Positions 3,433 through 56,976 of a stretch of 64,000 nt of DNA are shown one piece after another. Origin of the DNA: Octopus vulgaris. Lineage: Eukaryota. The first letter of the stretch is position 1. Every line of letters begins with the position of its first letter. The position numbers and the translations under genes were made by a program. The stretch lies in contig OX597816.1 of NCBI GenBank assembly GCA_951406725.2, forward strand, positions 36,580,001 to 36,644,000, given 5' to 3'. Below the pieces are notes generated by a model. The model made no database searches. It was given only the letters and a program-made list of their open reading frames with translations, and was not told the DNA's origin.

Positions 3433-4449
3433 GTTTGTTAGGAATTTCGCTTCATAGGTTTAAACTGCAGCGTAGCGACTTTGGTAAGAGTCCTTTACCA
3501 TACACTTGAGTCGACCTTGGGAGAAAATTCCCAAACATGGAATTGTTTGGATGTCCGGTTACTTGTACTTATAATTCGAATATCCAGCCAGTGGCAAATA
3601 TTTGGATTAGGAAAGATGCTAATTGTCTGTGAAGTGCTCAGTCACTTATGTCAATTTAAGTAGTTCAATTAATGAAATACCATCGTTGGAAATTAAGGAT
3701 TACCCATCCTCGTGTTTACATTCATATTTATAGTAACGATATTTACACTGCAATATAACGTCATTTTCTAAAGTTTTATATTCGCATTGGGTCGGGAAAT
3801 AATAGCCAAATATGACTTTCTTGACTAAGTAAAGGAAGAACACTTTGGGTAATGAAGTTCTAAATATGATATGACTTTGCTCTTTGGTTTATTTAATTTA
3901 CAGTACGGACAAGAGCTTTTGGGAATTTATGATTCATAATCAAATCTTTGCTTGCTGCATCTGCACCTACATTTTCGATGGTTTCTAAGTAAAGGAAATT
4001 TCATAAGAAATCGATAAAATTTTACTTGCAATTATTCATCGACATTAAACCACTTTAACAAACACAGATATACAAATGTTCAGCGACTTCTTCTGAGTTT
4101 ACTTCAGTAACATTCTAGAAATAGCATTCCTCTATATGCAGTAACAAACCACTTATATATACGTCTCATTTAATATTTAGCCCTAAGCCCTTTATATTCT
4201 TGGCGTATCTCTCATCTGACAGGTTGCAACTATAGAACTGCACTCGTCCGCGCTCCGCACACCGATAAAGTGCAATTTCTACTATATGGACGCCAAGAAT
4301 GTATGTCTAAAATTATAGTATATGTAGGAGAAATATTTCTTGAACATGATTCAAGAGAGCAATTAATGGTCTTCATAAAGAAGAAAGTTATTTCGATTTA
4401 TGGATCATTTCTACAATATAAGTAACAATAATTATTCCTACTACAAACA

Positions 4450-4865
4450 CAAAACCTAAAATTTGGAGGGAGAGAAGCTAGTAAATTCCATCGACCAGAG
4501 TGTGTCACTAGTACTTAGTTTATCGACTCCGAAACATTGAAAAGCAAAGTGGACTCCGGTGGAGTTTGAACTCAGAACGTAAAGATGGTCGAAATACTTC
4601 TATGCATTTTGTCCAGCGGGATAACAAGACTTCCAATTCACCGCCTTAATATTGGTTTCAAATTTTGGCACAAGGCCATCAATTTGGGGAAAGGAACCGA
4701 GTCGATTATATCGTTCTCAGTGGTCAATTTGTGGATATTTTATCGACCCCGGAATATGAATGACAAAATCGACCTCGACGAAATTTGAACTAAAAACGTA
4801 AAATCGGACGAAATGCTTCTAAGCATTTTGTACGGGGAGAATGCAAATCGGCCAACTCGCCGACT
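4450..4865 (-). mobile_element. Two adjacent degenerate SINE copies
   Basis: Reverse complement of the SINE consensus (tttatcgac...gtggactccggtggagtttgaactcagaacgtaa; aatcgacctcgacgaaatttgaac...gccaactcgcc). Confidence 0.8.
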
Positions 4866-4973
4866 GAATATTAGTAACAATAGTTCTAAACCCAGAAGAA
4901 GTTATGTAATAAATGACGTATTTGACATTTCAGAAGTAATTATGCATATATTATAAGCGTAATAAATGGCTAG

Positions 4974-5315
4974 AAGGCGGCGAGCTGGCAGAGTTCTTAG
5001 CACACCGGGCGAAATGCTTAGTGGTATTTCGTTTGCAGCTATGTTCTCAGTTTAAATTCAGCGGAGGTCAACTTTGCCTTTCATCTTTTCGGGGTCAATA
5101 AATTAAGTACCAGGTACGCAGTGAGGTCGATATAATCGATTTAATCCGTTTGTCTGTCCTTGTTTGTCCTCTCTGTCTTTAGCCCCTTGTGGGTAATAAA
5201 GAAATAGGTATCTTGCTTATCTTCATGTTTTGAGTTCAAATTCCGCCGATGTCCTTTGCTTTCATACTTCGCCAACCACAAATTTCAGGCCTTGTGCCCA
5301 TAGTAAAAAGGATTA
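4974..5315 (+). mobile_element. SINE with partial second unit
   Basis: aaggcggcgagctggcagag head, gcctttcatcttttcggggtcaataaattaagtacc core, gccccttgtgggtaataaagaaata tail, then a restart at the gagttcaaattccgccg segment. Confidence 0.9.
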
Positions 5316-7900: not shown

Positions 7901-10399
7901 TATAGTTATCATGTATAAAAGGCTTGTGCTTTCATAAAACTAAGGAAGATGGCCTTCAAAGCCAGATGTCGCTTTGAAATCGGGTACTGGTTTGTCTGAG
8001 TTTCTGTCTCTATAGAAAGCTTATTTTATATTTAAAGCTATAGAGATCGATTCAAAACATCACTAAATTGAGTACAGAATTTTGAATGCAAGTTTCAAGT
8101 TAAAGCCTCACATTAAACCAGGAATCTTGAATAATAATATTTCATTCTTTTTTTCAAATAAATACTTTCCTGAAATTATTTTATTTTCCTTTTATCATTC
8201 TTGTAGACCTACCTTCTTTGTGACCAGTTATGTGTGCCTTACTCTTTTCAGTGACTGTAGCTTCAATGATTTCTAGAATGTTCTCTGGCCACAAAGTTAT
8301 TTCTATGCATTAAACCCAGAGTGCGTACTATCTTTACATTTCGTATATATTGAATTAATCTTTATAATTTTTGTAGTGTTAGCTGCTCTAATATCCAATA
8401 TTTACTTTTTTTATAATTTATTATTCTAAACCGCATTATTATTACATTATCGCCTTTAATTTATTCATGTGGAAGGATTGAATCTTAAATAATTTGGAGT
8501 TTATCGGTATTAGTTTTACGACTAACGTGTCAATTTCTTTAAGACTTGTTTGTCATAGGTTAATATAAGATATATCCGTTGCTTTTTTAATGAAACTATT
8601 ATGTTGCTTTATTTGCATTCTTCTATGCTACAACCTCTTTCGCCGTATGTTAATTCAAATAATATTATGTTAGAGTATATATTATAATTCAAGTGGTATA
8701 TATTTAATGATGTGTTTTGTTGTATTTCTGTCAAAACGTAAGTCATTTACGTTTCACATGCAATGTATCGGAGCTGCTTTCAGGAAAATTTTTAACACAA
8801 TTTATATCTAATTTCAGATATACCTTCTAAATAACGAGTTTTCCCTTACGCCTGATATTTTATTAACATCAGTGGCGGTGATGCATGTAACATGCATCTC
8901 TATGCTTTGTTGAAGGAATTTCTGTGACACAAATGATGACCCGCAAACAGCTTTACCCTCTGAATAAATTCTCTAGTAATTTACCTTTTATTGAACCTGA
9001 TGCAAGAAATTACATCTTTCGATATCTGAAATATTTTATTTCGCTGTAGGCCTCTTAATTTGTTGGTGATGCAGGCACAGTTTAACATATAATTTGACCG
9101 TCCTTGTGTATCAACACTTTCATTAGTTGCAATTTCACATGGTTGGTGAAGCGAATAATAAGTCATGTAAGATCGCTAAAACGTCTGTCATAATTAAGTT
9201 CCATTTGATACATTCCGACATCATATATTTGACGACAAAGTGGGATTTACCTTGTACTAGAGTTGTTTAAAGATTTGCGAAGCGAAATATAATGTAACCG
9301 AAAATATAGCCAGCGTATTTGTGATACAATAACAATTCTACTGCCAAAACATTATTTGGAAAATTGACATTCGAAATGCAAGTATCTCAATCACATGTGA
9401 ATTTTGTCATTTCCAATTATCATCGACACAAATTATATTATAATTTTATCAGGTATATGTTACTATTCTGAAATTACACAATACTAATACAATTATTAAA
9501 GTCTGAGTCGTGCAGTTCAACATACCAGAAGTGCACACACATAAATTTGATAACAGAGCAGAAAATCGATAAATAAACGTATATTTACATTCTTTATTAC
9601 ATATATACATTCAATTTATAAATAGAAATGTCGCCCCAACAAAATTATCTAACCATTTCATTGATATGATTATATAAGTGAAGCTAATAAGCAAAGAGTA
9701 AACAAATTAATTTAATATAACTTTAATAGAGTGCCACTAAACACCAAGTAAATGTAGGAAAAACTCAATTTCCATAAAGAATAAATATAGTGACTGTTAC
9801 TTAATATTATGAAAACAAACGTAAATACCACCAGAATGAACTTTGCTTTATTCCTTTCGTAATTGATATAATATAATGCGAGCAAGTACCGGGGTCGATA
9901 AAATATATCAGCAGGTATTTGTGTTCATCGAATCGATTCCTCTACTCTTTAAACATTGTGGAACCTCTGTATACCCTAAATTAAATGCTGGGAAAACAAC
10001 AAAAATTTCTTCTACAATTATGAAATACAATTCATATTAAATAACAAATCCCGAAACCCATTCATAAAAGGAGCCACAACACATGTCCCCCATAAACACC
10101 TCCCCAAAACACACCTCAAACGCACATACTATTCAACCCCCCTTCACACAGGACACAACCTCCCCAACCCTACAAAAAGCCCTTTCCTCCCCGAAAAAAT
10201 TCAAACAAAATCCACCTCAAAACTTGGATCTTTAATCATTCTAACCCTCCTCCCCACCGACAAAATGCATCAAGAACCCCCATACACTAGGAATTACCCC
10301 CTTCTCAATGCTCCCCACTCTCATACTAATATCAAAAAAGGTATCCTACCCACACCTATACATAGAATCCCATACAGCCCTCCCAACCAACACCCACAA

Positions 10400-10828
10400 T
10401 CCTAGAAATCTGGACACCTTTTCCACATCTCCTTAATGGAAAACTGGAAAAGATACCTAGATGATCGTTTCATCATATGGAAAGAATCTCATGAAAATCT
10501 TCTGGAATTCAAAACCACGCTTAACAACATACATCCCAACATTCAATTCACTATGGGAGTCAGCAAACATCATCTCCCTATTCTTGATCTCCTAATTATA
10601 AAAGCACCTCACAACCAAATCAAAACCAACATCTACCACATACCTACAAACTCACAATACTCACAAACTCACAAACTTCCTTTCATGCCACCGAAAACAC
10701 ACCAAGATAAATATCCACTTCAACTTAGTTAAAAGGATTTGCATCATTGTCTCGGACCCAACCATTCGAGAAGTAAGCCTTCAAGACCTCAAAAAAACAA
10801 TATTACAAGGCCAATATCCCTACACAAT
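10400..10828 (+). mobile_element. Penelope-like element RT C-terminal fragment (pseudogenised)
   Basis: WKRYLDDRFIIW..FKTTLNNIHPNIQFTM..LPILDLLI..TNIYHIPTNSQ, then frameshifted SCH.KHTKINIHFNL..RICIIVSD; homologous to 57044-58130. Confidence 0.85.
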
Positions 10829-11462
10829 ATCCCTAGGAAGCATCGAACGCCTCCTGATAGCTTTGACACGGTGTCCCTAGATGCAGTTCCGGCGGCCGGG
10901 GGTGTTTGTCTCCCCTTCGTATATGTATATAAGGACACATGGAAAAAATGTGTCAAAGCTATCAGGAGGCGTTCGATGCTTCCTAGAGCTATACAGCGGT
11001 GGTGTACCCCCTACTGTCACTTTCTTGTTAGATTGACAGTATGCAACCATTCTATCGCCCCACCACCGTACATGTCTCTACGAGAGATTTAGAAATTCAA
11101 TACTTCTTATTTTGATAATCAGTGAATAAACTTCACTGAATATAGGTATATACAATTACGAAGTCGAGGCAAATATCACCAGCTGACCGGTGTCTGCTAC
11201 TCTAGGCCGATGAAAGACAACGATCCTGAAACACAGTGTCCCTAGATGCTGTTCCGGCGGCCGGGGGTGTTTGTCTCCCCTTCGTAGGGGAAAATGTGTC
11301 AAAGCTATCAGGAGGCGTTCGATGTTTCCTAGGGCTATACAGCGGTGGTGTACCCCCTACTGTCACGTTCTTGTTAGATTGACAGTATACAACCATTCTA
11401 TCGCCCCACCACCGTACATGTCTCTACGAGAGATTTAGAAATTCAATATTTCTTATATATAT
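10829..11462 (+). mobile_element. Retrozyme-like cassette A: about 1.6 tandem copies of a 345-365 nt monomer with a short inverted 5' piece
   Basis: gtgtccctagatgc at 10871 recurs at 11236; 10829-10869 is the reverse complement of an internal segment; 3' end runs into (TA)n; contains an HHR. Confidence 0.8.
11201..11246 (+). ncRNA. Type I hammerhead ribozyme, variant core CCGAUGA
   Basis: tctagg-CCGATGA-aagacaacgatcct-GAAA-cacagtg-TC-cctaga; stem I perfect 6 bp and extends to a rod over 11157-11286; GUC cleavage triplet; stem II imperfect. Confidence 0.75.
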
Positions 11463-13957
11463 ATACCTAGTGAAACTACTAATATTGAAGTATTAAAAGT
11501 GAAATATAAGTGTATTAAGTCTATAAAATTGTGCATAAAGTATATAAAAAGTAGATGTAAACTGCATTAAGTATTCCAATTTCATTCACTGTTCAATGAG
11601 TAACAGATGATCGACTATTTTCCATACTGACAGAACAAACGCTATGCTTTCAGATTATTTGCATAAAGTTTTCAGAAATAACCCAATAGGTTTACCATTA
11701 ATTTCGTGAAATAGTCACGGCTCCCTCTAGTATATATAAATGTGTGTGTGTGTGTGTGTGAATATAGATTCCTTCTGTTTGTTCTTCAACTTTGCATTAG
11801 AAAGTATTCACTGCTACATAAATTCTGATGTATCCTTGCCATTGTTTCTACACACAACAATCCTAGCCAGCTTCAACTAGACTGATACAACAATTTTGAC
11901 TTGCATGCCTTAACTATTTGCCAACCGATTCATTATATATATGTTTCCTCCTTTGCTTATACTACACTTATATTTTTGGTTCCTATAGACTATCTATATG
12001 CATACTGCATACATATATTTACAGTACAGATTGCACATTATCTCCTAATTATCCCTATAATATGTTAGTTCGCAATAGTTCAATATGCCTCACGCGAACC
12101 TGAACCACTCTACTAACGCTCTTCCCTTGCACACGTTCCCAACTTTTCAAGCTGAATAATGAAAGCATCAATTTTTGAAAATCCATTTATAGTTCATTTT
12201 AATTTTACTCAAATAACAAATAACCTTTATTGCGGAAGTGAATGCTCTATTAGGACTTGTTTATCAGAGATACGCTATTTCTGGCCATATCCTGCAGACA
12301 GAGACAGTTGAAAGAACACTGAGTTTTCGAAACATTCCCTCATTTTGTTTTTAATATCAACATATCCAAGACTTTCGAACAATGTCATTGTTTAACAATT
12401 AATGGATCGAAATATGCATCTATGTATCATACTTACTTTAGAGATCTGTATGCATACAGCGGTGGTAAGTCAGTTGCAGTAATTCCTTTGTGCTTGCATT
12501 TCGTTACCGATGTTTCTGCAACTGAGTATTGAGTAGACGGAGAATGAGTAAATGTTTCTATGACAATCCACTACCCGCTATCTTGTGTAGACGCAATGCG
12601 GATATTGTAACCGGCTGGAAATAAGCTCTAATGAGCATAGAAAAAAGGGCGAATAGAATGGATTTCTATCAAGGTCTTAAAACCAGAAATCTGTGCCGCA
12701 CACAACCCTGAATTATGTTTCTCTTTGAATGAATTAATACATTGTCGTAAAGGGGAGTCTTACTTGTATAAACAGCAACAAGGTACTAGTCCAATATACG
12801 TAAACTGAAAGAAGCTCACAGTAGGGTGTCTGATCTTGAAACTTTTAATTGTAGACAATGTCAAATATGTTGATGTGTGAAATGAAAAATAAAACGTTTG
12901 CTAATCATCTCGAGTGGGACATACAATTTATTTGTGGATAACAGAGAAGAGAAGATCCTCGAATTATTTGCGTTTGGAAATAAGTAATCGCAGCTGAAGA
13001 TAGAGAGACACTCAAGAATTAATGTAAATCCATTTTTATATTAACGTGAGATTAGGAATATAGATCAATATATATCAGGTTTAGAGAGTTTGTCTCAGTT
13101 TAGAGTGGTAGAAATAACTGACTTGAAGTAATATCGTGCATACATGTATACAATCAATGTACCATACGTTGTCGAACAAATTTAAAATTACTGTTGTTCA
13201 GATATCTCGGAAAAGAGTGAATGTATCATTCTACCATGTGAATTATCCAAAAGCGCACCTCTTAAGAAATTGTAGAGAGTATGAAATTGATGACCTACAT
13301 GTTTTAATGCATCAAAATCCTTGCGGAATTTCATGATATATGCATCTATAATACTAAATTATTTTAAAACGTAACACTTCAATTACCTTGAATTGTGTTG
13401 AAAGATTTTCAGGTAAAGTGAAAGGGTGCTTATTATACAATCTTTTAGAAGTCAAGAAGCTAGTTTCATACCCTGTACATACATATAGATAGATTGGTAG
13501 ATAAGTAGGTAGGCAGGTAGGTAGGTAGCGAACTAGCTAGCGAAGCAGGTAGTTAGGTAAGTAGATATTTAGATAGATAAGACAGACAAACGGACGGGTG
13601 GTTGGATGGATGGATGGATGGATGGGTAGATGGGTGGATGGATTGATACATTTCCAAAGTGATTTATTTGACTTAATTTCCGAAGAAGCCATGTAATAAA
13701 TTAGTACATCTTGAAAAATTCAAGCTGTGTCTTAAAAGCGGCTGCATTTAAAATCGATATCAGAACAGCAAGGTTTTAATTCTGTGTCAAGTAACACTTC
13801 TAATAAATCAATTAGCCTAGTCAAGTTTTACTCAAGATAATTTCTCTGTTTTTCACTTGTATACATCGTGAAACTCGCATTGTATTGATAGGATTACATT
13901 CAGAATTCACGTAAACAATACATGGCCTGTGACCATAAGAGAAAGTCTATATGAGAG

Positions 13958-14412
13958 AAGGCGGCGAGCTGGCAGAAACGTTACCACGCCGGGCGAAATG
14001 CGTAGCCGTATTTCGTTTGCTGTTACGTTCTGAGTTCAAATTCCGCCGAGGTCGACTATACCTTTCATTGTTTCGGGGTAGATAAATTAAGTACCAGTTA
14101 CGCACTGGGGTCGATATAATCGACTTAATCCGTCTGTCTATCCTTGTTTGTCCGCTCTGTGTTTAGCCCCTTGTGGGTAGTAAAGAAATAAAAATAGAAA
14201 CGTTAGCACACCGGACGAAATGCGTTGCGGTATTTCGTCTGTCGTTACGTTCTGCGTTCAAATTCCGACGAGGTCGACTTTGCCTTTCATCCTTTCGGGG
14301 TCGATAAATTAAGTACCAGTTACGCACTGGGGTCGATGTAATCAGCTATATCCCTTTGTATGTCCTTGTTTGTCCCCTCTATGTTTATCCCCTTGTGGGC
14401 AATAAAGAAATA
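13958..14412 (+). mobile_element. Dimeric SINE with target-site duplication
   Basis: Two head-to-tail units; flanks agaaagtctatatgagaga / agaaagtccgtatgagaga. Confidence 0.92.
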
Positions 14413-14704
14413 AGAAAGTCCGTATGAGAGATCACATACGGTGTTACTAAAATGAATTGTCCTAATGAGTAAAGAATCTAAAGCTGATATTGTTCCATTG
14501 AACCATTAACCGTTTCTGATAGTCTAGATAACGTTTCTCCCTTCGTCGATGTTGATGCGGAGGGGGATGGTGAGCATTACTAATTGCAGCATTCACGTGG
14601 AGTTCTCTATGAACAGTTAATACGGGGTTGGTTAAGGTGGTGGTTGAACTCTGCCGATACTCCTGCTGTTGGAGTTCGATGGGTTTTTTTATCTTTTATC
14701 TTTT

Positions 14705-15496: not shown

Positions 15497-15893
15497 ATAC
15501 TGATATGTGGGGAAATACGCATACATACGTATGAGAACATGTTTATCTATGTATCTCTTCCTCCAGAGATATGTGTGTGTAAATACAGAACACACATACA
15601 CTCATACATATATGTATCTATGTATCTATGTATCTATGTATCTATGTATGTATGTATGTATGTATATATGTATGTATGCATATATATATATACTAATATA
15701 TTTATATATACACGAAGGCACGACATGAGCACCTAAAAATAGAAGATAAAAATTCTTCTGCACCACAGTATTATATTTGTGAACATTCTGTGCTACAGAA
15801 GTACTTTTGACCTCTATTTTTAGCGATGTAGGTGCCCATGTGCTGCCTTCGGGTGTATATGTATACATACAAATAAGTAGATATCTTATGTTT

Positions 15894-15895
<2 letters not shown>

Positions 15896-15932
<37 letters not shown>

Positions 15933-16004
15933 TTATATATCTTTTGTTGTGTATCTATATATATATATATACATACACACAGGCACACACACACATACAC
16001 ACAC

Positions 16005-18646: not shown

Positions 18647-18690
18647 GTATGTATGTGTGTGTGCATTTATATATATGTATATATATATAT

Positions 18691-18925
18691 TGTATAAATG
18701 ATTGTGGGTAAGGCCAAAACAATACGAAGTAAATGCAAGGTAAATCACAAGAAAACAAATATGTGAATCATACAACTTACGTTGTATTTAATTTCTTGAA
18801 AATGGGTTCGTAACCCCGAAATATCGAATACAAAGTAAGTCTACATTAATTCACATATTTGTTTTCTTGTGATTTACCTTGCATTTACTTCGCATTGTTT
18901 TGGCCTTACCCACGATTGTTATATA
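18691..18925 (+). mobile_element. Mini PLE pseudo-LTR remnant with inverted tail and a hammerhead
   Basis: About 65-bp inverted arms 18704-18768 / 18849-18913 around an HHR-like core; both ends in (TA)n. Confidence 0.65.
18775..18840 (+). ncRNA. Minimal type I hammerhead, U3-A8 variant
   Basis: ttc-TTGAAAA-tgggttcgtaacccc-GAAA-ta-TC-gaa; distal stem acttac..ttgtatt / aatacaa..gtaagt. Confidence 0.55.
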
Positions 18926-19009
18926 ATATATATATATATATATGTGTGTGTGTGTATGTGTGTGTATCTATGTATGCATATCTATATCTATATATGTATG
19001 CATATATAG

Positions 19010-20059: not shown

Positions 20060-23000
20060 GATATTGGCGTCCGTGGTTCGCTTTCAACAGCAAGAGCAGC
20101 AACAACAGCTGCTACAGCAGCAGCAACAGCAACCACAATAGCAACAACAACACAACCAACACTCACTGGAATTAATGTTGAAGGAGTCTGAAAATACTTC
20201 AGGTTCCTACTCGCCAGGCAGCGTAGCAAATTCCATAGAATTCAGCTAATATCCAGAAGTGATTACATTCACCACATATTTTCGACGATACCAAGAAATC
20301 TTCGAAAAAGGGGTTAAAAGTTTGTCCAACGAGAGAAAAGTACGACTACTTTTAGAAAGTTATCTCCTGCCGAACGCGAAAAGTACAGTAACTATATTCT
20401 GCCGAAGGAATTGGGTGAAATTTCTTTAGATGAAACAATTTTTTATCGAAAATTTTCAGTGAAAGTATCTCCTTGTTTAATGTTTAAATCTGGTCAAAAA
20501 ATGATGATGAATATTTTGTCACATACGCCGGAGTGGTTAACAAAGAACCTATGATACTCAAATGAGTTGACGTTTTCAAGTGTTTAATTTTTGTTCAAGG
20601 GTTTGCTGTAAGCAAAGATACAGATATACGTTCCCGGATATTAGCAAAATTAAAACAGGACCAAAATTTAACTCTGCAGGCAGTAGCAGAAGTTTGTCAG
20701 AGGATTATAATTCCATGACGCAGATAAACTTGAAGAGAAAGATTGCTCTCCTGTTCAAGCGTGTCGACCGGTAACGAACAAATATATAGAGAAAAATGCC
20801 AGGACCGAATTCATATTATGGGCGCGGTCGTCTACATTTTAAAAATAAATGTCCGTTTAAAAATATGAAATGCTTGAAGTGTGGTAAAATAGGCCATAAA
20901 AAGGTGCATAATAGGACATCCTAAAGTGCGGTTCAGTAGAAACGATCAAGTAAAGGGGTTATCGGTGACAAAAATATGAATGAGTCTGAAAGGAAATTTG
21001 TGATGTAGATGTTAATAACACAAACGTAAAATGACATTTGAATACATGAAGTGACATCTCGATAATTAGCAGAGATATATGGATAGAAATCTAGAGATCT
21101 AAATTATAAGAAACTTCGAAAATTGCCGGTGCTGTTGCAGGAAAAAATATTATATTTTAAGGATGAATTGATAAGACACATTACATTTCGAGGAAAAAAC
21201 CTTAAAAGCCAAAGTTTTTCTGTTGAACGATACGACAAATTCATTCGGAACACACTGGATGGAATTATCTAACTTATGAGACCTCTCCATGAACATGAAT
21301 CTTTTCTGAAAAATGTGAATGGCTTTTTCGACAGTACAAATAATTCGTAAGACGAATTGAAACAATTTTTGCAAAATTTTTCCTGGTAAGTTATGTTTGT
21401 GCACCAAAACGAAGGAGAAGTTTCAAATAAAAGAAAACGTAATACCGACATTTAAACAAAAACGAAATGTACCGTTCACAGCGTTAGAACAGATAAACTT
21501 AGCGTTAGAGATGAGAAAAAATGGAATATAGTCGATGGGCAGCACCACCTGTGTACGTTAAGAAAAAGAATAATATAATTAGACTGTGTGGAGATTTTTC
21601 CACTGGTTGAAACGAATGTCTTCAAACGTGCCACTATCCGCCAACTACTACAGACTATATCGTCGCAAAATTAATCAGCGGCAATATTTTTTTCTAAATT
21701 AAGGCGGTGAGCTGGGAGAAACGTTAGCACGCCGGGCGAAAAGTTTAGCGGTATTTCGTGTCTTTACGTTGTAAGTTCAAATTCCGTCGAGGTCGACTTT
21801 GTCTTTCATCCTTTCGGGGTCGATAAATCAAGTACCATTTGCGTACTGAGGTCAGTCTGATCGACTGGCCACCTCCCCCAAAATTTCGGGCCTTGTGCCT
21901 AGAGTAGTTAGAATATATTTTCTAAGTTGGATCTCTTTGACGGGTACCTACAAATTAGAGGATGAATGCTTTATATACCTAACGGTGTACACACATAAAG
22001 AAATGTATAAATACAACTGGTTACCATTTCGCTTAAAAGGCGCACCAGCTATTTTTCAACAGATTATGGATGCAATGTTAGCGGACAGTGAATTCGCAAT
22101 TCCATATCTGGATGAAATACTCATTAAAAGCGAATCCAGTGTCCAACACGTAGAGCACGTAAAATATGTGTCCGATAATATTAGCGATTGCGGCTTTACT
22201 TTGTGTGAAGAAAGGTGTAAATTTTTCTCACTGAAAATAAGATATTTAGGACAATTCATTGACAGAAATGGACGTCGACCAGATCTGTCGAGGGCAAACT
22301 CAATTAAAAATTTGCCCCCTGCGACAAATACTGCAACGGTACAAACTTTTGTGGGGCTGGCAAATTACAAGCAAAATTATATTCCACATATGCATAAGTT
22401 GGTGGTTCCACTGAATAATCTGTTGAAAAGAATGTGAGCTGGAACTGGTCGGAAAATGATCAAAAGGCGTTTGACGAAATTAAGAAAAATATTAACATCA
22501 GATATAGGGTATAGGATCAGTATTTCTACATAAATATAGAGATGGTAATATGACGGCGTTGCTTCATGCCTCACGTTCTATGATATCTGCAGAAAAAAAG
22601 TTACAGCCAATCGAAAAGAGGCTCTAACGATTATTTTTGTCATAAAAAATTTAATTCACAAAGTTTTACACGGTAAAAAAATTACAGGGTTTTCGACTAC
22701 ATCGTCTGTTATTATTGAGATATGTTTCGAAGAAAGGAATCCTACACATACAACTAATAGGGTACGACTTTATTAAACAATGATTTTAAGATGGAGTGTA
22801 TAGCACCCACGAAATTAGGTCACGTTGATTGTTTATCAAGACTGATTTTTAAAAATGTTGAACCAGTTGAAGATGCCGTGATTGCTGCTTTGCGAGCAGA
22901 AAATAAAATTACAAATGTTTTGTGTAACATAATACCTGAACTGCCAGTTCTTTTACAAGACATAAATAAAAATCGGCGAACGGTAATTCATTAAAAAACT

Positions 23001-29768: not shown

Positions 29769-29814
29769 GACACCTGATGAAAGCTGCAGATTACATCAGC
29801 CGAAACGTTGTGTC
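29769..29814 (+). ncRNA. Minimal type I hammerhead (PLE pseudo-LTR type)
   Basis: gacac-CTGATGA-aagctgcagattacatcagcc-GAAA-cg-TT-gtgtc; stem I perfect 5 bp; palindromic AACGTT stem III. Confidence 0.8.

Positions 29815-31895: not shown

Positions 31896-31991
<96 letters not shown>
31883..31991. repeat. (GACA)n(GATA)n microsatellite; another (GATA)n run at 32411-32474
   Basis: Direct inspection; the dimeric SINE at 31994 sits between the two runs. Confidence 0.95.
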
Positions 31992-31993
31992 GA

Positions 31994-32408
31994 AAGCTGC
32001 AAGCTGGCAGAAACGTTAGCACGCCGAGCGAAATGTGTAGCAGTATTTCGTCTGCCGTTACGTTCTGAGTTCAAATTCCGCTGAGGTAGACTTTGCCTTT
32101 CATCCTTTCGGTGTCGATAAATTAAGTAGCAGTTACGCACTGGGGTCGATGTAATCGACTTAATCCGTTTGTCTGTCCATGTTTGTCCCTTCTGTGTTTA
32201 TCCCCTTGTGGGTAGTAAAGAAATAGGTATTTCGTCTGCCGCTACGTTTTGAGTTCAAATTACGCCGAGGTCGACTTTGCCTTTCATCCTTTCGGGGTCG
32301 ATTAAATAATTACCAGTTACCCACTGGAGTCGATATAATCGGCTTAATCCGTTTGTCTGTCGCTGTTTGTCCCCTTTGTGCGTATCCCCTTGTGAGCAGT
32401 AAAGAAAT

Positions 32409-32410
<2 letters not shown>
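31994..32410 (+). mobile_element. Dimeric SINE inserted in (GATA)n
   Basis: Two consensus units; the second lacks the 5' head. Confidence 0.9.
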
Positions 32411-32475
<65 letters not shown>

Positions 32476-33646: not shown

Positions 33647-34929
33647 TTATAAGCATGATACTAAAACAGTGATGAAAATGTCAGTAAAGCTTTCTACCAA
33701 ATGGAATACAAATGAGGGATTTGATATTACTTTCAAATGAAAATTAGATCACTGAACGTCAATATACTTTCACTTTCTATACTATGCTTGGACGAGATAA
33801 AAAGGAATTCCTATCACGAATATCTAGTCTCTATTTCAGGTAAACCGTCAATTATTATACATCCAACTCCGTTGTTTCTTTCTTTTTTCTAAATATACCT
33901 TAGCGTGGGATTTCGATGCAAATTCAAACTAAGTACGCTACCATGGAGAGGAATCACCCATTACATCACAACGGAAGATGTTTTTGTTTTTTTTTTAATA
34001 GTTTAAATTACTTCTTTCGATTTCTCTGGAATGGAAATATTTACACATGATAGTGGATATATATATATGGGTGCATATGTGTGTGGGTGTACGTTTATAT
34101 ATAACAGTTTCAAGGATATTTGTAGTACCATATGATCGATATGCTACTTCAACTAATCTTAGCTAGCAGCATAGCTATACTGGCAGGATGACGACAAATA
34201 TAATCTTGTGTATGAACAAACTCGTGAATGCCATAAGGATGTTGTTTTACAAGTGAAAGTTATAATATCTAGGGTCAAAAACCATGAGGTAATCGATAAA
34301 ACGCAGCTTGGAAAAAGTAATCTGTGTAAAGAGATTTTGAATATTTTTAGTTTTATTGATTATTGCGTTGATAGCTAAGTGGTGTTTAGGATAGTTTAAC
34401 TGGAAAGCGTAAACAATTCATATCATCTTGAAATTTCATTATACATGGATATACAATTTTCTTTAAAATATTTTGGATGTTGGAAACAAACATCTAAGAG
34501 TGGCGAGGATGCATTCAAGAGAAAAATCGAATTATAAACTAAGGTAAATTTGCTATATTTAAGCTGATGTAGAATCTTCAAGTGGAAATAATTCATTTAG
34601 ATTTTCCAAGAGCAGTTGACGTATTTCGTCTCTAATATATTTTTAATTATTTTTGTTTCTGGGAAAGTTTATTCATATAGCCTGTTTTTGAAGTGTATGA
34701 ATGTGTGACAGTGGAATGGCAATGTGTATATTCAGTTGATGATAAATGATAAAACCCCCGCAGATCCGAAGGTGGGCACTCCCAAACTGGCAATACGTAG
34801 TATTCATTTTGTGAATTATATAAAGTCGGTTACTAAGTTAAGTAAAAATTTAGAATCACAAAAATTAATACACAGAAAACGATTGGAGAGGTATAGTTTG
34901 AGGCAGAGATCTTTCTTTGCTCCGTTTGT

Positions 34930-37900
34930 GGTAGGTCTTGATACATACGTTTATATCGATTGTTAGAGTGATATCAAAGACGAGGTATGATTTTTGTCTG
35001 AAGTCTTTCAATATGATGTCTGGACTATGTGCATTTATCTTTCTGATGGTTTGAATAGTGAAGTTCCATAGGAGTGAGATGTGATCATTTTCATGCACTG
35101 GAAGTGTTTTGTGTTCCCACCAATTTTTATCATGGGGCAAATCCAGGTTTTTGCAGATTACCCAGTGAATATATTGTGCAGTTCTATCATGCCAGTTAGA
35201 TACACTGTAGGCGCAAGAAGACTGCTCATGGAGACAACATGATCAATGGTTTCACTTTGTTGTTGACATACACGGCATGTTGGGAAGCTGCCGATCTTTA
35301 ATATGTTGGCCTGGTAGTTCCTTGTAGGTAGGTATTGGTCTTGGGCTGCTATGATAAACCCTTCTGTTTTAGATTTTATGCCAGAAGCCATTAGCCATTG
35401 ATGGGTAAGGGCTTTGTCAACATCGGCATTATTCGCTCTCTTTGGGTATTATCCATTGAGAGGTTTTTCTTGCCACTTAGTCAGAATATCTATGGCAGCA
35501 GTTTTAGCACGGGTCTTCATGCGCTTGGCTTTTTCTGCACTAGTTTCTAGTCTGTCTAATTCTGGAATTTGTTTTATTTGGAATTCACTTAGATATTCCT
35601 TTGCTTGTTTTGTTACTGAGTACGATTCTTTCTTGTTTTCATGTTTTGAGACGAGTTTTAACATCCAGTCCTCGGAGTTTTTCAGGTAGGTGTCTAGGCC
35701 AATTGGGGAAATCTTCATTGTCAATGCCAATCGTAAAAGCCGAAGCCTCCCAGTTTTCTTGGCAGATAAAGTCTTTCTATATCTGCCTTAGGGTGGTGTA
35801 TTCTATGCATTGTCAACAGTTTTCGTATTTTTCTGTCAAGATTACATATTTCAGTAATTGACTAGTTAATGATATTGAAATTGTATGTCACGGCTTGTAA
35901 GGCTAAAGCATTGATCGCTTCGATCCTGTTACTTTTTTAAGTACGATAACATTCTTTTCTGATCCTTTCTCTCATCATAGAATGCCTCATTCTGTTCCCT
36001 TCAAGTACCCCTAGGTACTTGTAGCTCTCCTCTGGTTCTACCTCTTTTATGATATTCAAATGGTCATGGTTAATGTTAGATGTTTCTCTCGCATTTCCTT
36101 TGATAAAGGTAGCTTTTTCACATTTATCGAGGCCAAATTGCATTCTGATGTCATCACTGAATTGTTTAACAATCGCTAGTAAGCCCTTGAGTTGTTGGTC
36201 ATTTTTTGCAAAGAGCTTTAAATCATCCATGTAAATGAGAGGATTTATTTGTTTATCAAACATTTTATAACAATACTGTGCATCATTGAGCAATTTTGAG
36301 AGAGGTATTAAAGCTAGACAAAAGAGGAGTGGTGATAGTGAATCACCCAGGAAAATGCCACATGAAACTTTTACATCTCCAGCATTTAGAGATTCATTGC
36401 CACTGTTCAAAGTCAGTGTCGTTCTTCATGGTTTCATACTTACAGACAAAAAGACTTCCATTTGCTTGACCTCCTGAAAGCAGATTTTATATCTTCAACC
36501 TTGACACCCTCCTCTAATGAGTCTAAGTCTGTTGATATTCTATCAATCCAAGGGCCTTTTTATTGTGTGTTTCCTCTTCTGTCCAAATTGTATTCCCAAA
36601 TTCCTATACTTCTTCTTTTGATGGGACAGACTTTACTACAACTGGTGTTTTCCCTATCTTCCTCTACAACATTTTGAGATTATTTTTGGATATGTTTTTG
36701 TCCTTGAAGAATCTAACGCACTTTTCATACCTTGCTATGCGGGTAGCTTTAACAATACCATTTGCCATGTGGTTTCTATGGTGGCATCAATGTTAGGTAT
36801 GGTTTTCATATTATATCTTTTCTTTAATTTTCGGATTTTTGTAGTTTTGGCAGTCTTGTCAAACTTAAGGTTTTTCAAACATTCTATGTAAGACTTGAGT
36901 AGCTGAATATGGTGTTGAATATGCTCTTGCCAAGAAAGCCTTTTGTGGGAATGTTTTCGTTTTCTAATCTTTTCACTACATAGAATCGTTGAGATTTTCG
37001 CGGATGTATAATAGAGGTGGTTGAGATCTGTGATATCAACATCATTAGCTGATGTTATATCCTTAAGTGCAAGGCAGAATTTATCAATTATTTTTCAGGT
37101 TTTGTTTAGAATTGCGACTTTTTGGGAGAGTAATGTGTTCATTCATACTGGTTTCTTTAATTTTCAGCCATTGAATCATGATTTGATTTTTTCGATCATG
37201 TGGTTCTGTTGCGTCGATATTTTTGTGATTTTCTTCATGTATTTGATTTTCATTTGCCTTAATGTTTGTTTGGTTCAGAGAATATTTTACTTTACCTATC
37301 AGTTACTTTTTCAATCATTACTGCGTTTTCACAAGCTCCGGGCTGATCTAAAAGTATTTCCTCTGTAGTATCTTCTTTAGCTGCAGCTTCGTATGTTTTA
37401 TCCCCTACTGCTTGTTTAATGTGGTCAATATCTACTTCTGTTAGTATTTGTTTTTCATAATGTTTCTTCTGACGTTGGCAAGCTTGTTACTGTCTATATA
37501 GGGTCTTAATTCAGGGTGTTTCTGTCTCCAGTTTAAGTAGGTTTCTACAGTATTAGATTTATTTGTTGGGAAATATATGGCATGGTAGAAGGCTGTAAGA
37601 ACTTCTTTATTATCTTCCCTAGAACATTTTCATTCTTTTTCTTTTGGTTATTTGATAACGAGCATTGACGACCATCTGTTGTAATATTCCGTTGTTGGGT
37701 ACTTCCAGCTCCTGTGTGTCGGGAAGATTTGAACCAGTAGCTGATTTTTCGTGTCGAATCTGGTTCAACATTCGAGTACGTGGTCCTTTGTAATCCGGTT
37801 GGTGACAATTCCGGTTTGTATTTTGCTTTGTTAACAGTGAGACATGACAAGCTTTGACGTTGACATTAGGGGACCTGATCAGTCTGTTTAGGATTAATTT

Positions 37901-40297: not shown

Positions 40298-40748
40298 ACT
40301 GGCGTCGATATAATCGACTTAATCCGTTTGTCTGTCCTTGTTTGTCCTCTCTATGTTTAGCCCCTTGTGGGTAGTAAAGAAATAGGTATTTCGTCAGCTG
40401 CTACGTTCTGAGTTCAAATTCCGTCGAGGTCGACTTTGCCTTTCATCCTTTCGGTGTCGATTAAATAAGTACCAGTTACGCACTGGGGTCGATGTAATCG
40501 ACTCTGTCCCTTTGTCTGTCCTTCTTTGTCCCCTCTATATTTAGCCCCATTGTGGGCTATAAAGAAATAAGAAACGTTAACAGGCCGGGCGAAATGCTTA
40601 GCGGTATTTCGTCAGTTATCCTGTTCTGAGTTCAAATTCCGCTGAGATCGACTTTGCCTTTCATCCTTTCGGGGTCGATAAATTAAGTACCAGTTGCATA
40701 CTAGTGTGGATCTAATTGATTGGCCCCCTTGTGCCTAGAGTAGAACAG
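40298..40748 (+). mobile_element. Trimeric, 5'-truncated SINE array
   Basis: Three successive partial consensus units. Confidence 0.88.
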
Positions 40749-45045: not shown

Positions 45046-45179
45046 TATTTATTTATATATAGAGGGCATTATTATACATACATGCCACACGCTAAGAGGG
45101 ACAACATTAGTCATTTCTACCAAAAAGTTTACTAATCCCACCGAATGCAATTTTTCAAAGTAAGACATTTAAAAATATG

Positions 45180-45226
45180 GACTTGTATCACCTGTGATTT
45201 CATACCTCTGTATTCATCAGCAAGCC
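45180..45226 (-). ncRNA. Canonical type I hammerhead ribozyme
   Basis: Minus strand ggcttg-CTGATGA-atac agag gtat-GAAA-tcac ag gtga-TA-caagtc; all three stems pair; AUA cleavage site. Confidence 0.9.
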
Positions 45227-45639
45227 TGGACGTATCATAAATAAACGACCCTACCTCGTCTAAGCCGAGCAGCTAACTGATCAACATCAACGAAGCACAT
45301 GGGTGAGTTTACATATATTACATCCGGTAAATGGCAGACTTTTACGAATTGCATTTCGGGAAAGGAAAAGTTTTTTCGGAATAAAAATTTAGCAATTAAG
45401 GACAACTTCTTAATAAGGAAAACTTAACAAGAAATTATCGGGTAGATAGCGTGAAAGACCTCATAAGAGAAAAAAATTTCGAAAATAATTCTTTCTTATT
45501 GAACATATTAATTTATATATAGAGGGCATTATTATACATACATGCCACACGCTAAGAGGGACAAAATTAGTCATTTCTACCAAAAGTTTTACTAATCCCA
45601 CCGAATGCAATTTTTCAAAGTAAGACATTTAAAAATATG

Positions 45640-45686
45640 GACTTGTATCACCTGTGATTTCATACCTCTGTATTCATCAGCAAGCC
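45640..45686 (-). ncRNA. Canonical type I hammerhead ribozyme (second copy)
   Basis: Identical to 45180-45226, 460 nt upstream on the minus strand. Confidence 0.9.
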
Positions 45687-47910
45687 TGGACGTATCATAA
45701 ATAAACGACCCTGCCTCGTCTATATATATATATATATAACCTCTGATATATTTGCGTAGTTTATATAGCTTATAAATGGTTCCTAATCTCTCGCATAAAA
45801 TTCTGTATAATACAATATTATATTTTATATTTATAGTTACACATATTTTATATTTATAGTTACACATTTTAAATATTTGTGTATCTATATTTGACATCTT
45901 TATACATTTGTATATCTTTTTATATACTTTCCAAGTGTTTGTAAGTTATAATTTTTTTATAAGGTCTTTTTATATAATTTACTGGATATGGGAATCCATA
46001 TTCTAGCATATTTTTAATAATGCATTATTCATTAAATGCTTACATGCCCAAATATATATATATCCGCATGAACATTAAGTGCTAGATTTATCCTATCAAC
46101 GTTAATGCATCATTCAACCTGCTGCTTGGATTTACTTGAGATTATAAGTAAGCATTTACACCTTCACGGAAATACGAATAAACACCATACCCTCCGAATT
46201 AACATGAACTATGAACCTTATACTTGTATCTACTTTCAATTTTCTGTCTAGAACATCCCTGCACACCCCTGTTGTCTCTGACGGAATACTCAGTGCATGG
46301 AGATGTCGATAAACATATTGAAACATATCGCCGTAATGTGTTAACCACCATGTTTGAGCAAGGAAATCATTATTAAATTCCAAGTTAGCTCAAACAATCG
46401 GGTGGATTTGAGCTGATATTTTTTGTATCATATTTTTTTCACATGTTTACTATGTTGAGTCGGTTCTAATGGTCAGCGTTGATAGCGACGGATGATCGAG
46501 CATCAGTATTATCATCAGTGTATCCGTTTTGACCGTCTACGTAATTACAAGGAAAAGGAGTACCGACGTAGATTCATTAAATATATTTCAATCATATTCA
46601 CATATATACGCACAGTATATATGTGAATATACACGGAAGCGAATAATATACGCACTAGTATGTTTACTTACAAGCAAGTATAAACTCTCATACAAATATG
46701 TATGTATATATTTATGTAGGCATCTGTAGGAACCATGACAGAAAAGAATTTAACTATCTTTATTAGAAGACGTAAAAATGTAAAATGCATTCCGCTGAAT
46801 CTACTGATGACAACATTTCGAAATTAAAGTCTGATTCCAGTGATACAATGCTATCTCATTATTTCATCTAACTTCAATTACAGCGCAGATATACGTTTCC
46901 TGCTCTGTTACAGGTAATAGATTTTCTGATATATTGTATCTCATTTCGAATGTAAAATACATATTAAACAGGGCTTGTTATTGATTCTGTCATAATGTAT
47001 TACATATCGGTATCTCGCTAGGAGTTAACAATGCGCAAATATTCTCTGGCGTCAGTTATGGAATATCCATGAACATGCTCGGTGACATAGACGACGTAAT
47101 TATTCAATGCTTTGCTCTCACTCTCACGTTTTGCTGAACTGAATAGACACTAGGTTTAACATAGACATAACTGAAGATATCCTTGAAATCAAGATTCATT
47201 TCCTTGTCCTGTTGTGTTACTGCCAGTTTCAATTTAATTCCCAATACAGAATCCTTAGCTTGGACAAACCTGATTCAAAAAGCACAGTATAATTTTTAGA
47301 AATCAATGTCGAATAGAAAACTGGCTCCCGTCGGGAAAATACCCGGCAATATTTGCTTGCAGCCTCTTTATCTTTTTGAGCATACATACAGCACGGATAC
47401 ACGTTGCGTTTAATCCTTTTCAAATCCATACAATTAGAACAGATCAGATTAATGAAACATGGATTAGCGTTATCGACTATACCCTAAAGAAATATCTTTT
47501 ATGAGAAGGAGACTGTGACGATTAAAGTGATCAGATGAATGCGCAGGTTTAGTAAAAATTATTTAAAATTTTCAAAGATCATAATGAAGATAGAATCATT
47601 TTGTCCTTTCAAAATCTAATTTTATTCTATTTTAAAAGAAAAGTGGGACGGAGCAATAGAGTAGATTAGGATTTCTCAGGGTTTTATAACAAGTAAAACA
47701 GAGGCCGTTTCATCATAACCAATATCTAATAAGACCATGCAAATGGGATTGAAAACAATTAAATAAAATAACTAAGTCGTGTTTAATAGTAAGTTTTACG
47801 GTGATTGAACATGTTAATCACGTTGAATTTCGACAGATAGTGAACGTAATCACATTTTACGATTTCAGTCATAAAACGTAACCTTAATCTCACGATAGGT
47901 TAGTGAGGTG

Positions 47911-48292
47911 AAAGGCGGCGAGCTGGCAGAATCGTTAGCACGTCGAGCGAAGTGCTTAGCAGTATTTCGTCTGCCGTTACGTTTCATCCTTTCGAGGTCG
48001 ATTAAATAAGTACCAGTTACGCACTGGGGTCGATATAATCGACTTAATCCGTTTGTCTGTCCTTGTTTGCCCTCTCTGTGTTTAGCCCCTTGTGGGCAAT
48101 AAAGAAATAGGTATTTTGTCTGCCGCTACGTTCTGAGTTCAAATACGCCGAGGTCGACTTTGCCTTTCATCCTTTCGGGGTCGATTAAATAAGTACCAGT
48201 TACGCACTAGGGTCGATATAATCGACTTAATCCGTTTGTCCTTGTTTGTTCTCTCTGTGTAGCCCCTTGTGGGCAGTAAAGAAATAAAGAAA
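47911..48292 (+). mobile_element. Dimeric SINE with target-site duplication
   Basis: Flanks ataggttagtgaggtga / ataggttagtgaagtga. Confidence 0.92.
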
Positions 48293-48426
48293 TAGGTTAG
48301 TGAAGTGATATGAATGGACAGGAATTGATTCTTTACTAATCACAGCTGCCCTACAGCAAATGAACGTATTCTATACAAATCCCTAACATCATTTTCATTC
48401 AGAATATATGCATTATAATATCACTT

Positions 48427-49208: not shown

Positions 49209-49624
49209 AGTATTTATATAAAGGAAAATTAATATATATGTATATAGCATATATCTGTCGTTGCACGGACTATATCATATATAATTTGGAGATTTTTTAT
49301 GTTAATCACCCTGAAAATATTCCCACTTTTGAACTACCTGAGAAGTCAGGTAGTCATAGAAATATGAATTTTAATAATTTCCCAATATCGATTCCTATAT
49401 TTCAATAATCCTCGAATATTATCTTATAATAGACATTTATGATGTCTACGTTATCGACCTTCTATGTCTTTGCTAATAACTCTTAGCAATCTTTATAATC
49501 ACATTTTATTCGGATGTCTTCCGTCCACTAATGATTTCAGACGATGATACCTTATCCTGCCCAGTCGCGAACCATGTTTCAGGCACTTGTCCACTAACGT
49601 CGTTCACTAAAATTGGTGTCTATA

Positions 49625-49855
49625 TCTTATTTCTTTATTGCCCTCAAGGGGCTAATCATAGAGGGGACAAAGAAGGACAGACAAACGGATTAAGTCGATT
49701 GCATCGACCCCAGTGCGTAACTGATACTTAATTTATCGACCCCGAAAGGATGAAAGGCAAAGTCGACCTCGGCAGAATTTGAACTCACAACGTAACGACA
49801 GACGAAATACCACTAAGCATTTCTCCCGGCATGCTAACGTTTCTGCCAGCTCGCC
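49625..49855 (-). mobile_element. SINE with target-site duplication
   Basis: Full reverse-complement consensus; flanks tgtctatatct. Confidence 0.92.
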
Positions 49856-55404: not shown

Positions 55405-55889
55405 CCACTATATATATATACATGCTTATACATGAAATATTAGGAAAAAAAACACATTGTTAACAAAATGAACAACTAAATTGCACCATCTTGAAAATTG
55501 TATATCATAGGGAAGTTAAAATTAAAGTGACGATTAAAAAGTAAAGATGAAGTAAATTACAAAAATGATATAATGTATATAACAGGTAATATATATATAC
55601 ACACACACATATATATATATACATATACACACATATACTAAATGTTCTACTATATTAAATTGTAAATCGAAAGATGTGTCCTTCAATGTCACTATATATC
55701 TATACATGCTTATGCATGAAATATTAGAAAATAAACACCTTTTATCGATTCACAATGAACAGTCAAATTACACCATCTTGAAAATTGCATATCATAGGAA
55801 GGTTAAAATTAAAATGATAATTGGCAAGTAAATATTAAGTAAATTACAAAAATAATATAATGTATATAACAGGTAATATATATATATAT

Positions 55890-55927: not shown

Positions 55928-55930
<3 letters not shown>

Positions 55931-56099
55931 ACATAAGGGACTAAAGCCATCTGAATATGGCTAGGGACAGGGCAGGGTGGTGGGGGTGTTACTGTTGCAT
56001 TTAGCCCCAGGCGAACATCGACGTCACCAGAAAGGCTCGACACCGTCACGGTGCCCTAAACCTGCAAAGGGAGGTAATTCCCCGATGAAGCGGAAACCA

Positions 56100-56145
56100 C
56101 ACACGGACCATGGTTTCAAGGTGTATTGCCTATCATCGGCGTGTG
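56100..56145 (-). ncRNA. Type I hammerhead, CCGAUGA variant
   Basis: cacacg-CCGATGA-taggcaatacacctt-GAAA-ccatgg-TC-cgtgtg; extended stem I spans 56061-56184. Confidence 0.8.
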
Positions 56146-56459
56146 GTAGGCCTCCGCTTCCTCGACGAATTCTCACTCTGCAGGATTTTCTTATATAGAT
56201 TTTCAAGCAAAATACATTTGCTGATTTCGAAAATCTGTTCGAAAGCAATAATAATTCTCTAAAAGGGATATAGACAGTAACTGCTCGATAACATAAGGGA
56301 CTAAAGCCATCTGAATATGGCTAGGGACAGGGCAGGGTGGTGGGGGTGTTACTGTTGCATTTAGCCCCAGGCGAACATCGACGTCACCAGAAAGGCTCGA
56401 CACCGTCACGGTGCCCTAAACCTGCAAAGGGAGGTAATTCCCCGATGAAGCGGAAACCA

Positions 56460-56505
56460 CACACGGACCATGGTTTCAAGGTGTATTGCCTATCATCGGC
56501 GTGTG
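56460..56505 (-). ncRNA. Type I hammerhead, CCGAUGA variant (copy 2)
   Basis: Identical core, 360 nt from copy 1. Confidence 0.8.
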
Positions 56506-56670
56506 GTAGGCCTCCGCTTCCTCGACTAATTCTCACTCTGCAGGATTTTCTTATATAGATTTTCAAGCAAAATACATTTGCTGTTTCGAAATCAGCAAAT
56601 GTATTTTGCTTGAAAATCTATATAAGAAAATCCTGCAGAGTGAGAATTCGTCGAGGAAGCGGAGGCCTAC

Positions 56671-56716
56671 CACACGCCGATGATAGGCAATACACCTTGA
56701 AACCATGGTCCGTGTG
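56671..56716 (+). ncRNA. Type I hammerhead, CCGAUGA variant (inverted copy)
   Basis: Same motif read directly on the + strand; rod spans 56632-56755. Confidence 0.8.
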
Positions 56717-56931
56717 TGGTTTCCGCTTCATCGGGGAATTACCTCCCTTTGCAGGTTTAGGGCACCGTGACGGTGTCGAGCCTTTCTGGTGACGTCGATG
56801 TTCGCCTGGGGCTAAATGCAACAGTAACACCCCCACCACCCTGCCCTGTCCCTAGCCATATTCAGATGGCTTTAGTCCCTTATGTTATCGAGCAGTTACT
56901 GTCTATATCCCTTTTAGAGAAATTATTATTG

Positions 56932-56976
<45 letters not shown>

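Follow-up and report, generated by a model that had tools for sequence, protein, structure and literature searches.

A probable non-LTR retrozyme with a U4C hammerhead core in Octopus vulgaris, preserved as a decayed copy with the insertion anatomy of a PLE

The short tandem repeat around the hammerhead at 11201-11246 of the 64,000-nucleotide stretch of Octopus vulgaris DNA analysed here (the window) is probably a decayed copy of a high-copy non-LTR retrozyme that was copied in trans by a TA-targeting Penelope-like element (PLE) of Neptune/Nematis type. The kind of element has already been described; its unusual trait is a U4C substitution in the hammerhead core that seems to be fixed family-wide. 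The anatomy of the insertion offers direct sequence evidence for PLE machinery copying retrozymes, a link that the literature, in the parts accessible to us, argues from co-occurrence and homology. The variant core, common to two diverged families, provides a natural test of how retrozyme circles avoid re-cleavage and exposes a blind spot of standard hammerhead searches.

The cleavage GUC triplets end at 10875 and 11240 and so delimit a 365-nt unit (10876-11240) with a GC content of 44%. A second copy, in which 9 of 224 aligned bases are substituted relative to the first and 19 bp are deleted, extends from 11241 to about 11455, for a total of about 1.6 units at the locus. The earlier note had described a monomer of this length in this number of tandem copies, abutting a broken PLE RT and ending in (TA)n, and all of this was borne out, down to the (TA)6 at the 3' end and the RT fragment upstream. 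The features of the locus are as follows.

10319..10825, plus strand: decayed, frameshifted PLE RT fragment (catalytic motif to thumb), cut at 10825 (tblastn)
10826..10835, plus strand: short repeat of 10813-10822 marking the 5' junction; it overlaps the few bases of microhomology shared with the inverted piece
10827..10869, minus strand: truncated unit in inverse orientation, 95% identical to the reverse complement of 10950-10992; an inverted 5' piece of PLE type
10866..10881, plus strand: remnant of the upstream hammerhead, with a stem III strand, GUC (site 10875) and the 3' strand of stem I
10876..11240, plus strand: complete 365-nt unit, cleavage site to cleavage site, predicted to form a branched circle (circular fold)
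10876..10931, plus strand: 5' arm of the 48-bp closing helix, an extension of stem I (fold)
11056..11110, and 11402-11456 in copy 2, plus strand: 'tail' between two alternative 3' ends (after 11055; after about 11109-11112)
11147..11206, plus strand: 3' arm of the closing helix; 6 bp from the core it contains a U/UAC internal loop, shared with the sister family (fold)
11201..11246, plus strand: type I hammerhead with a 6-bp proximal stem I, cleavage after 11240
11241..11456, plus strand: partial second copy, stopping at the distal 3' end (repeat comparison)
11454..11465, plus strand: (TA)6, probable target microsatellite (sequence)

As a short tandem of 365 bp without an ORF and with a GC content below 50%, the unit matches the layout of non-LTR retrozymes. 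No RT or EN homology was found inside it beyond spill-over at the junction, and no LTR, PBS or PPT, the last two judged by eye. Animal non-LTR retrozymes are described as highly self-paired circles of 170-400 nt in which the hammerhead is mostly free to fold, and include a 350-390-bp family in mussels (Cervera & de la Pena 2020, PMC7229834). The present unit shares with them the size range, the low GC content, one type I hammerhead per unit, a self-paired circle with an unsequestered ribozyme, a high copy number and the occurrence of PLEs in the genome, which that paper regards as candidate partners. It differs in the U4C core, in being present as only 1.6 units with one complete ribozyme, and in being known here from DNA sequence.

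The earlier note had placed a hammerhead at 11201-11246. The type I motif is there, and the canonical metazoan layout given in PMC4209133 fits it; its core at 11207-11213, however, reads CCGAUGA (U4C) and not CUGAUGA, and stem II contains a mismatch. Stem II is formed by 11214-11216 and 11225-11227 and is followed by GAAA at 11228-11231 and a short, palindromic stem III. An A at 11215 produces the A-C mismatch in this copy, where the family base, in essentially all of the contig depth in four sequencing runs, is G. The architecture as a whole is canonical, with a 6-bp stem I bounded by an internal loop, a stem II of 3-4 bp in the family and the palindromic stem III. The UAC bulge in stem I presumably resembles the Schistosoma tertiary contact.

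Just one ribozyme at the locus is complete, since at the upstream site (10875) the 5' half of the core is gone. An active copy in the sense of Li, Clavereau & Pollet (10.64898/2026.07.22.740005) has two consecutive complete hammerheads; this locus falls short of that count, while the sister element described below has two in tandem. The shortfall lowers the standing of this locus as an active copy and not its membership of the family.

A loose hammerhead descriptor (stem I of at least 6 bp) matched six places in the window, compared with one match in 30 shuffled windows. Rfam searches returned no hammerhead, either across the window with E values up to 1, where nearly all of the 79 matches were of microsatellites to miRNA models, or for the two ribozyme regions, a 151-bp region here and that of the sister, at E up to 10. 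The C at 11208 seems to characterise the family as a whole, and the same change is apparently fixed in both of the diverged genomic families: none of the 40 variants listed falls at this position, the loose-end consensus of five contigs of run X4 starts with CCGA as this copy does, and all three ribozymes of the sister family read CCGAUGA. The variant itself is already known in nature. In a natural viroid variant the same substitution lowers activity in vitro and keeps infectivity (Perreault et al. 2011, PMC3088659, citing Ambros & Flores 1998); it is rare there and apparently fixed here. Variation between C and U at this position was also seen in a 2026 virome paper, which searched with CYGANGA. 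We found no report of a fixed U4C core in a retrozyme, nor of this 365-nt family, in the full-text literature exclusive of most subscription papers and key supplements, and the word 'ribozyme' is absent from the consulted parts of a 2026 octopus repeat annotation.

We considered how readily the active ribozyme might form. In terms of model energies, the circle of this copy must give up 7.6 kcal/mol relative to its minimum to adopt the active fold, and 3.1 kcal/mol if 11215 is given the family-majority base. For the linear 1.6-mer, with a free minimum of -213.5 kcal/mol, docking the core on the downstream site gives -198.4 kcal/mol and docking it on the upstream site, via the long helix and with a 4-bp stem III, gives -200.5 kcal/mol, so that the active folds lie 13-15 kcal/mol above the minimum. 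The upstream docking corresponds to half of the dimer fold described for hammerheads with a short stem III (PMC4209133).

The predicted circle is strongly structured. The earlier note had called for its energy to be compared with dinucleotide shuffles, and the 365-nt circle folds at -124.6 kcal/mol against a shuffle mean of -83.3 (sd 5.8), a z of -7.1; no shuffle among 200 reached so low an energy. For ten further segments of 365 nt from the window, among them repeats and PLE coding DNA, z ranged from -1.7 to +1.3, the minus strand of the same circle gave -5.7, and the interior of the unit without the rod still gave -4.6. The circular minimum-energy fold pairs 62% of the bases and contains every helix that had been listed; the rod-shaped stem I of about 50 bp appears in it as a closing helix of 48 bp (10876-10931 with 11147-11206) that includes 5 G-U pairs and 8 internal loops. 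Such a long closing helix is ordinary for animal retrozymes. The novelty implied by the earlier note thus falls away, since animal retrozymes are typically described as highly self-paired circles of 170-400 nt whose type I hammerhead is free, and the sister family has a similar rod. Its term 'viroid-like' also overstates the case, because viroid and plant circles block the ribozyme by pairing (PMC7229834) and the core here is not sequestered by a long complement. Furthermore, the 365-nt unit has no minus-strand hammerhead, and the family is an integrated high-copy DNA repeat rather than a viroid or viroid-like replicon.

The unit had been presented as a third family. It is homologous, even outside the ribozyme, to a young family at 56 kb in the same window, which lies next to a second PLE:

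55929..56933, minus strand: homologous young sister family with a 360-nt unit (56106-56465) (alignment, folding)
57050-58149, minus strand: 5'-truncated PLE ORF with RT, CX4CxxC linker and GIY-YIG endonuclease (a few frameshifts and stops)

The sister element contains three identical CCGAUGA hammerheads, has one copy inverted and (TA)n at both ends, and forms a 690-bp near-perfect palindrome; its copies are 99.3-100% identical. Since it is young and carries the CCGAUGA core, U4C is compatible with recent mobility. The 360-nt and 365-nt units align colinearly with about 60% of positions identical (z 6.7; no shuffle out of 100 scored as high). When the ribozymes were removed, the local alignment score of the sister (37) exceeded all of 300 shuffles, and TA-rich tiles elsewhere scored up to 50. 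As this local test was not decisive, a global tile test was used, in which the in-register tile scored 16 and the best of 12,276 other tiles scored 0; the reciprocal comparison agrees. The two TA-joined ends of the sister align to 11055 and about 11100-11110. Its tail is about 45 nt long, and because both ends fall at the same aligned places we regard the supposed third family as a sister of the 56-kb family. The circle of the sister folds with a z of -5.6 and is likewise closed by a long helix, of different sequence. The host sequence flanking the sister, at 55590-55790 and 56933-57030, is duplicated at 85-87% identity.

As regards covariation, the comparison of the two families points both ways. 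Anchored on the core, four of the six proximal stem I pairs change on both sides with the U/UAC loop kept; these changes are not independent of detection, because stem I is part of the descriptor. Over the whole fold, the sister retains the capacity for 69 of 97 ungapped pairs, mostly through identity, compared with 35-48 under register shifts. Pairs changed on both sides number 4-16, as against 6-17 in register-shift controls, and do not exceed the controls in any of four sequence-only alignments. RNAalifold on the two family units yielded 37 pairs, 10 of them with both-side changes; the rod was not among them, as the two sequences are aligned out of register in that part. Within the family, the 27 variants listed inside the unit, which come from unphased contigs, comprise 13 at unpaired and 14 at paired positions; among the latter, 6 leave the pair intact or restore it, 1 (10960/10987) is balanced by the family base opposite, and 7 disrupt it; 4 of these 7 belong to a diverged hairpin subfamily. 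In the rod, three of four variants keep the pair.

Public sequencing runs show that the family is abundant. Parts of the stretch occur in 20 of the 24 runs listed, under five organism labels. Four runs (X1, X4, X9 and X16) were placed on 10600-11250 as contigs at 80% likeness, with 2271, 1104, 62 and 14 contigs per run, the 2271 coming from one DNA run. X9 and X16 are presumed to be RNA and serve as sequence evidence; the contigs are unphased and carry no information on the ends, strand or level of an RNA. Depth summed in X1 comes to 64 over the unique flank and to between 2e4 and 1.1e6 over the unit; this is no copy number, yet far above single copy. X1 is perhaps the source sample and is then not independent. 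Depth is lowest at 11128-11171 and 11238-11250. The first of these dips is the part of the unit farthest, going round it, from the end at about 11110, as 5' truncation predicts; fragmentation of contigs could also cause it. The head-to-tail joint from 11230 to 10866 occurs in X1, X9 and X16, and X4 has a 363-bp form, so that all four runs contain a wrap-around joint. By itself this joint proves little, because the ribozyme spans it. In X16, however, one contig leads from 11044 past the 3' end site and through the ribozyme to the following unit, and is a real tandem in another copy. At 11006-11043, in all four runs, a diverged subfamily replaces the hairpin region, and loose ends there suggest that the hairpin occurs in both orientations among copies. 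Two pattern scans of metagenome contigs gave no matches.

The structure of the insertion is what ties the element to PLEs. PLE insertions are characterised by partial tandems, an inverted 5' copy, an optional tail of 30-40 bp and targeting of (TA)n (PMC8557442, PMC11167929, PMC4209133), and each of these features, with a microsatellite as the target, is present here. The inverted 5' piece, 43 bp long and contained in the span of the earlier note though not described there, is joined to the flank in one X1 contig with 0 differences and in one X4 contig with 3, two runs that carry different organism labels. At 10987 it keeps the family base that copy 1 has lost by mutation. At 10960 it and the two direct copies all have T, at a position that is C in 56-77% of the X1 and X4 depth. 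On this account the sequences fit copying of the three pieces from a single template. The direct copy starts about 10 bases upstream of the 10875 site, so the RT crossed the cleavage junction twice, which calls for a circular or an uncleaved multimeric template.

At the other side, two alternative 3' ends lie about 55 nt apart. Among the matches listed, an end after 11055 followed by a TA run occurs in at least 7 contigs of X1, and distal ends occur after 11109 in X9 (TA run, at least 1 contig) and after 11111 and 11112 in X16 (at least 2). In PLEs the tail has been traced to two internal RT start sites (PMC11167929). The pLTRs of EN+ PLEs of Neptune/Nematis type (Craig et al. 2021, PMC8557442; Frangieh et al. 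2024, PMC11167929; Cervera & de la Pena 2014, PMC4209133) likewise show the partial tandem, inverted 5' copy and optional tail, an AT-rich or (TA)n target and a hammerhead upstream of the 3' end; they differ from the present unit, which has no ORF, a canonical rather than minimal hammerhead and a tail of about 55 nt rather than 30-40. The combination of an inverted 5' piece with two TA-joined 3' ends is not met in the consulted parts of PMC7229834. PLE-derived vertebrate retrozymes are also non-autonomous hammerhead tandem units tied to PLEs, in their case to PLE pLTRs (10.64898/2026.07.22.740005); that work deals mainly with vertebrates and draws on co-occurrence and pLTR homology, where the link here is insertion anatomy.

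The adjacent RT fragment at 10319-10825 is itself genuine. It contains a frameshift, and in the best frame its identity to RT+GIY-YIG proteins reaches 45-56%. Pfam returned nothing in any of the five reading frames around it; it was identified by BLAST and by homolog searches. Named relatives at the protein level are from a mussel and a sample of clam gill. In X4, X9 and X16, copies of this PLE other than the present one run past 10825 with different, in-frame coding sequence, and this continuation is absent from the window, from which it follows that the junction at 10825, with its 10-base duplication and microhomology, is secondary. Clean insertion of the unit into the PLE was considered and rejected, because the search for target-site duplications turned up none of at least 7 bases and the window does not contain the other, downstream half of this PLE. 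The adjacent PLE is thus a neighbouring older element outside the unit, its ORF is cut mid-domain so that at this locus the unit does not flank an RT-EN ORF of its own, and adjacency does not show partnership.

A PLE of a suitable kind is present elsewhere in the window. The CX4CxxC linker, which marks the Neptune and Nematis clades in published accounts, would place the ORF at 57050-58149 in one or the other of these two. The sister element lies about 120 bp past its stop, and the descriptor found no hammerhead at the 3' end of this PLE. A PLE query against other collections gave 0 confirmed of 26 candidates in viral contigs and 1 of 80 in genome contigs, a 29% relative. This is a PLE-like RT+GIY-YIG gene (29% to P0006) at 3001-5090 of contig L001, with a hammerhead-like motif about 770 bp downstream; the contig, 539 kb long, is labelled as a Rhodospirillales MAG, for which contamination or misbinning is likely and transfer a lesser possibility.

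These observations suggest a pathway for the element. Tandem copies would be transcribed, and the hammerhead would cut after GUC, probably in a dimer-type fold that pairs the palindromic stem III strands of neighbouring units; the long stem I would then hold the ends for ligation into a circle, as in known retrozymes. The PLE protein may nick (TA)n and its RT start internally at one or other of two fixed sites, the ends of which are seen in the contigs; the start would lie 55-235 nt into the unit and not at the cleavage site. The RT travelled more than once round the unit, here twice across the cleavage junction, and a strand switch would have closed the 5' end, leaving the anatomy that is seen, a 43-bp inverted piece joined through microhomology to the older PLE RT gene. 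The locus has decayed since, to one complete ribozyme. Self-cleavage and the circle are predicted here from folding energies, and the contigs yielded neither a full-length family copy nor an autonomous partner with this unit. We also count against this pathway the lower activity of U4C hammerheads in vitro, the height of the active fold above the minimum, the both-side changes within the range of the controls, the paired variants that break their pair, the finding that PLE insertion in vitro did not depend on hammerhead cleavage (PMC11167929), and the finding that 8 of 9 predicted Xenopus dimers did not cleave (10.64898/2026.07.22.740005). The proposal of the earlier note, a structured non-autonomous RNA mobilised by PLEs, is in this respect strengthened by the inverted 5' piece, the two (TA)n-joined 3' ends and a Neptune/Nematis-type PLE in the window, and loses its claim to novelty.

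We also considered an extension of this pathway, in which the retrozyme lineage has fixed the attenuating U4C substitution as a built-in brake. Multimers might then be the only form to cleave efficiently, with the core brought by the long stem I onto the upstream GUC site and a stem III of 4 bp, and monomer circles might stay intact. We offer this reading tentatively. If it were true, the brake would explain why retrozyme circles with a free ribozyme stay closed, a matter that PMC7229834 leaves open; descriptors built on CUGANGA, and Rfam, would miss whole high-copy families; and the pair of conserved 3' ends joined to TA would mark the signal from which the RT of the Neptune/Nematis-type partner starts.

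An alternative that we consider rather unlikely is that U4C has shut off cleavage, leaving the ribozyme vestigial, and that the family moves as uncleaved linear tandem transcripts, in the manner of a PLE-dependent SINE-like repeat. Such transcripts would carry signals for PLE binding and RT start, and part of the self-complementarity would stem from fold-back errors of the RT instead of selection on a circle. Several observations are in keeping with this: the lower activity of U4C hammerheads in vitro (PMC3088659), PLE insertion in vitro without any need for hammerhead cleavage (PMC11167929), the reading of this insertion twice through the cleavage site, the palindromes that PLE insertions make, 690 bp long in the sister, the good folding of both strands, and the both-side changes that stay within the range of the register-shift controls. 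However, at about 60% identity the two families have kept the other core positions, the 6-bp stem I with its four both-side changes, the U/UAC loop and stem II, and a dead motif would not be expected to survive intact over such a distance. U4C is, moreover, the very substitution reported to keep a viroid infectious (PMC3088659).

It is improbable that the unit is merely the pLTR or UTR of an autonomous PLE and the locus a partial-tandem terminus with no independent life. This element and its sister do both adjoin PLE ORFs on the same strand, and 24 of 57 Xenopus retrozyme families match Repbase elements at the termini, nearly all of them PLEs (10.64898/2026.07.22.740005). The tendency of PLEs, according to published accounts, to insert in or next to PLEs also counts in favour of this rival. 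Against it, the 10825 junction is secondary, as other copies of the adjacent PLE continue in frame past it. The unit closes head-to-tail with no ORF between, the sister is bounded by (TA)n on both sides and is separate from its PLE neighbour, and the hammerhead is canonical, where those of metazoan PLE pLTRs are minimal (PMC4209133). Descent from a pLTR is possible and compatible with the retrozyme interpretation. Finally, the motif might resemble a hammerhead by chance and the repeat be an ordinary satellite or tandem duplication. The lack of an Rfam match and the off-consensus core might speak for this reading, but it is very hard to reconcile with the excess of descriptor matches over shuffled windows, the same core and architecture in a diverged sister family and the z of -7.1 for the fold.

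The window contains further repeats of related interest. On the minus strand at 45060-45720 there is a 460-nt tandem unit, present about 1.4 times. It carries two hammerheads with a CUGAUGA core and an AUA triplet, is bordered on either side by TA runs, and folds as a circle with a z of -5.5. It is alignable neither to the 365-nt unit (z 1.6, with 7 of 100 shuffles as high) nor to the sister family at 56 kb. A solitary minimal hammerhead at 29769-29814 (plus strand), with a long stem II, almost no stem III and a microsatellite following it, looks like a PLE terminal remnant. SINE-like repeats of one family are present in many copies (1528-1740, 4428-5269, 13957-14418, 21701-21921, 31988-32412, 40298-40729, 47906-48295, 49616-49855 and 61154-61360), several of them in partial tandems of 184-222 bp. 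Two self-complementary stretches, 18673-18943 (about 270 bp) and 15631-15939 (about 310 bp), are possibly MITE-like, and frames at 21850-22437 and 34865-36425 resemble, by eye, fragments of the reverse transcriptases of other retrotransposons.
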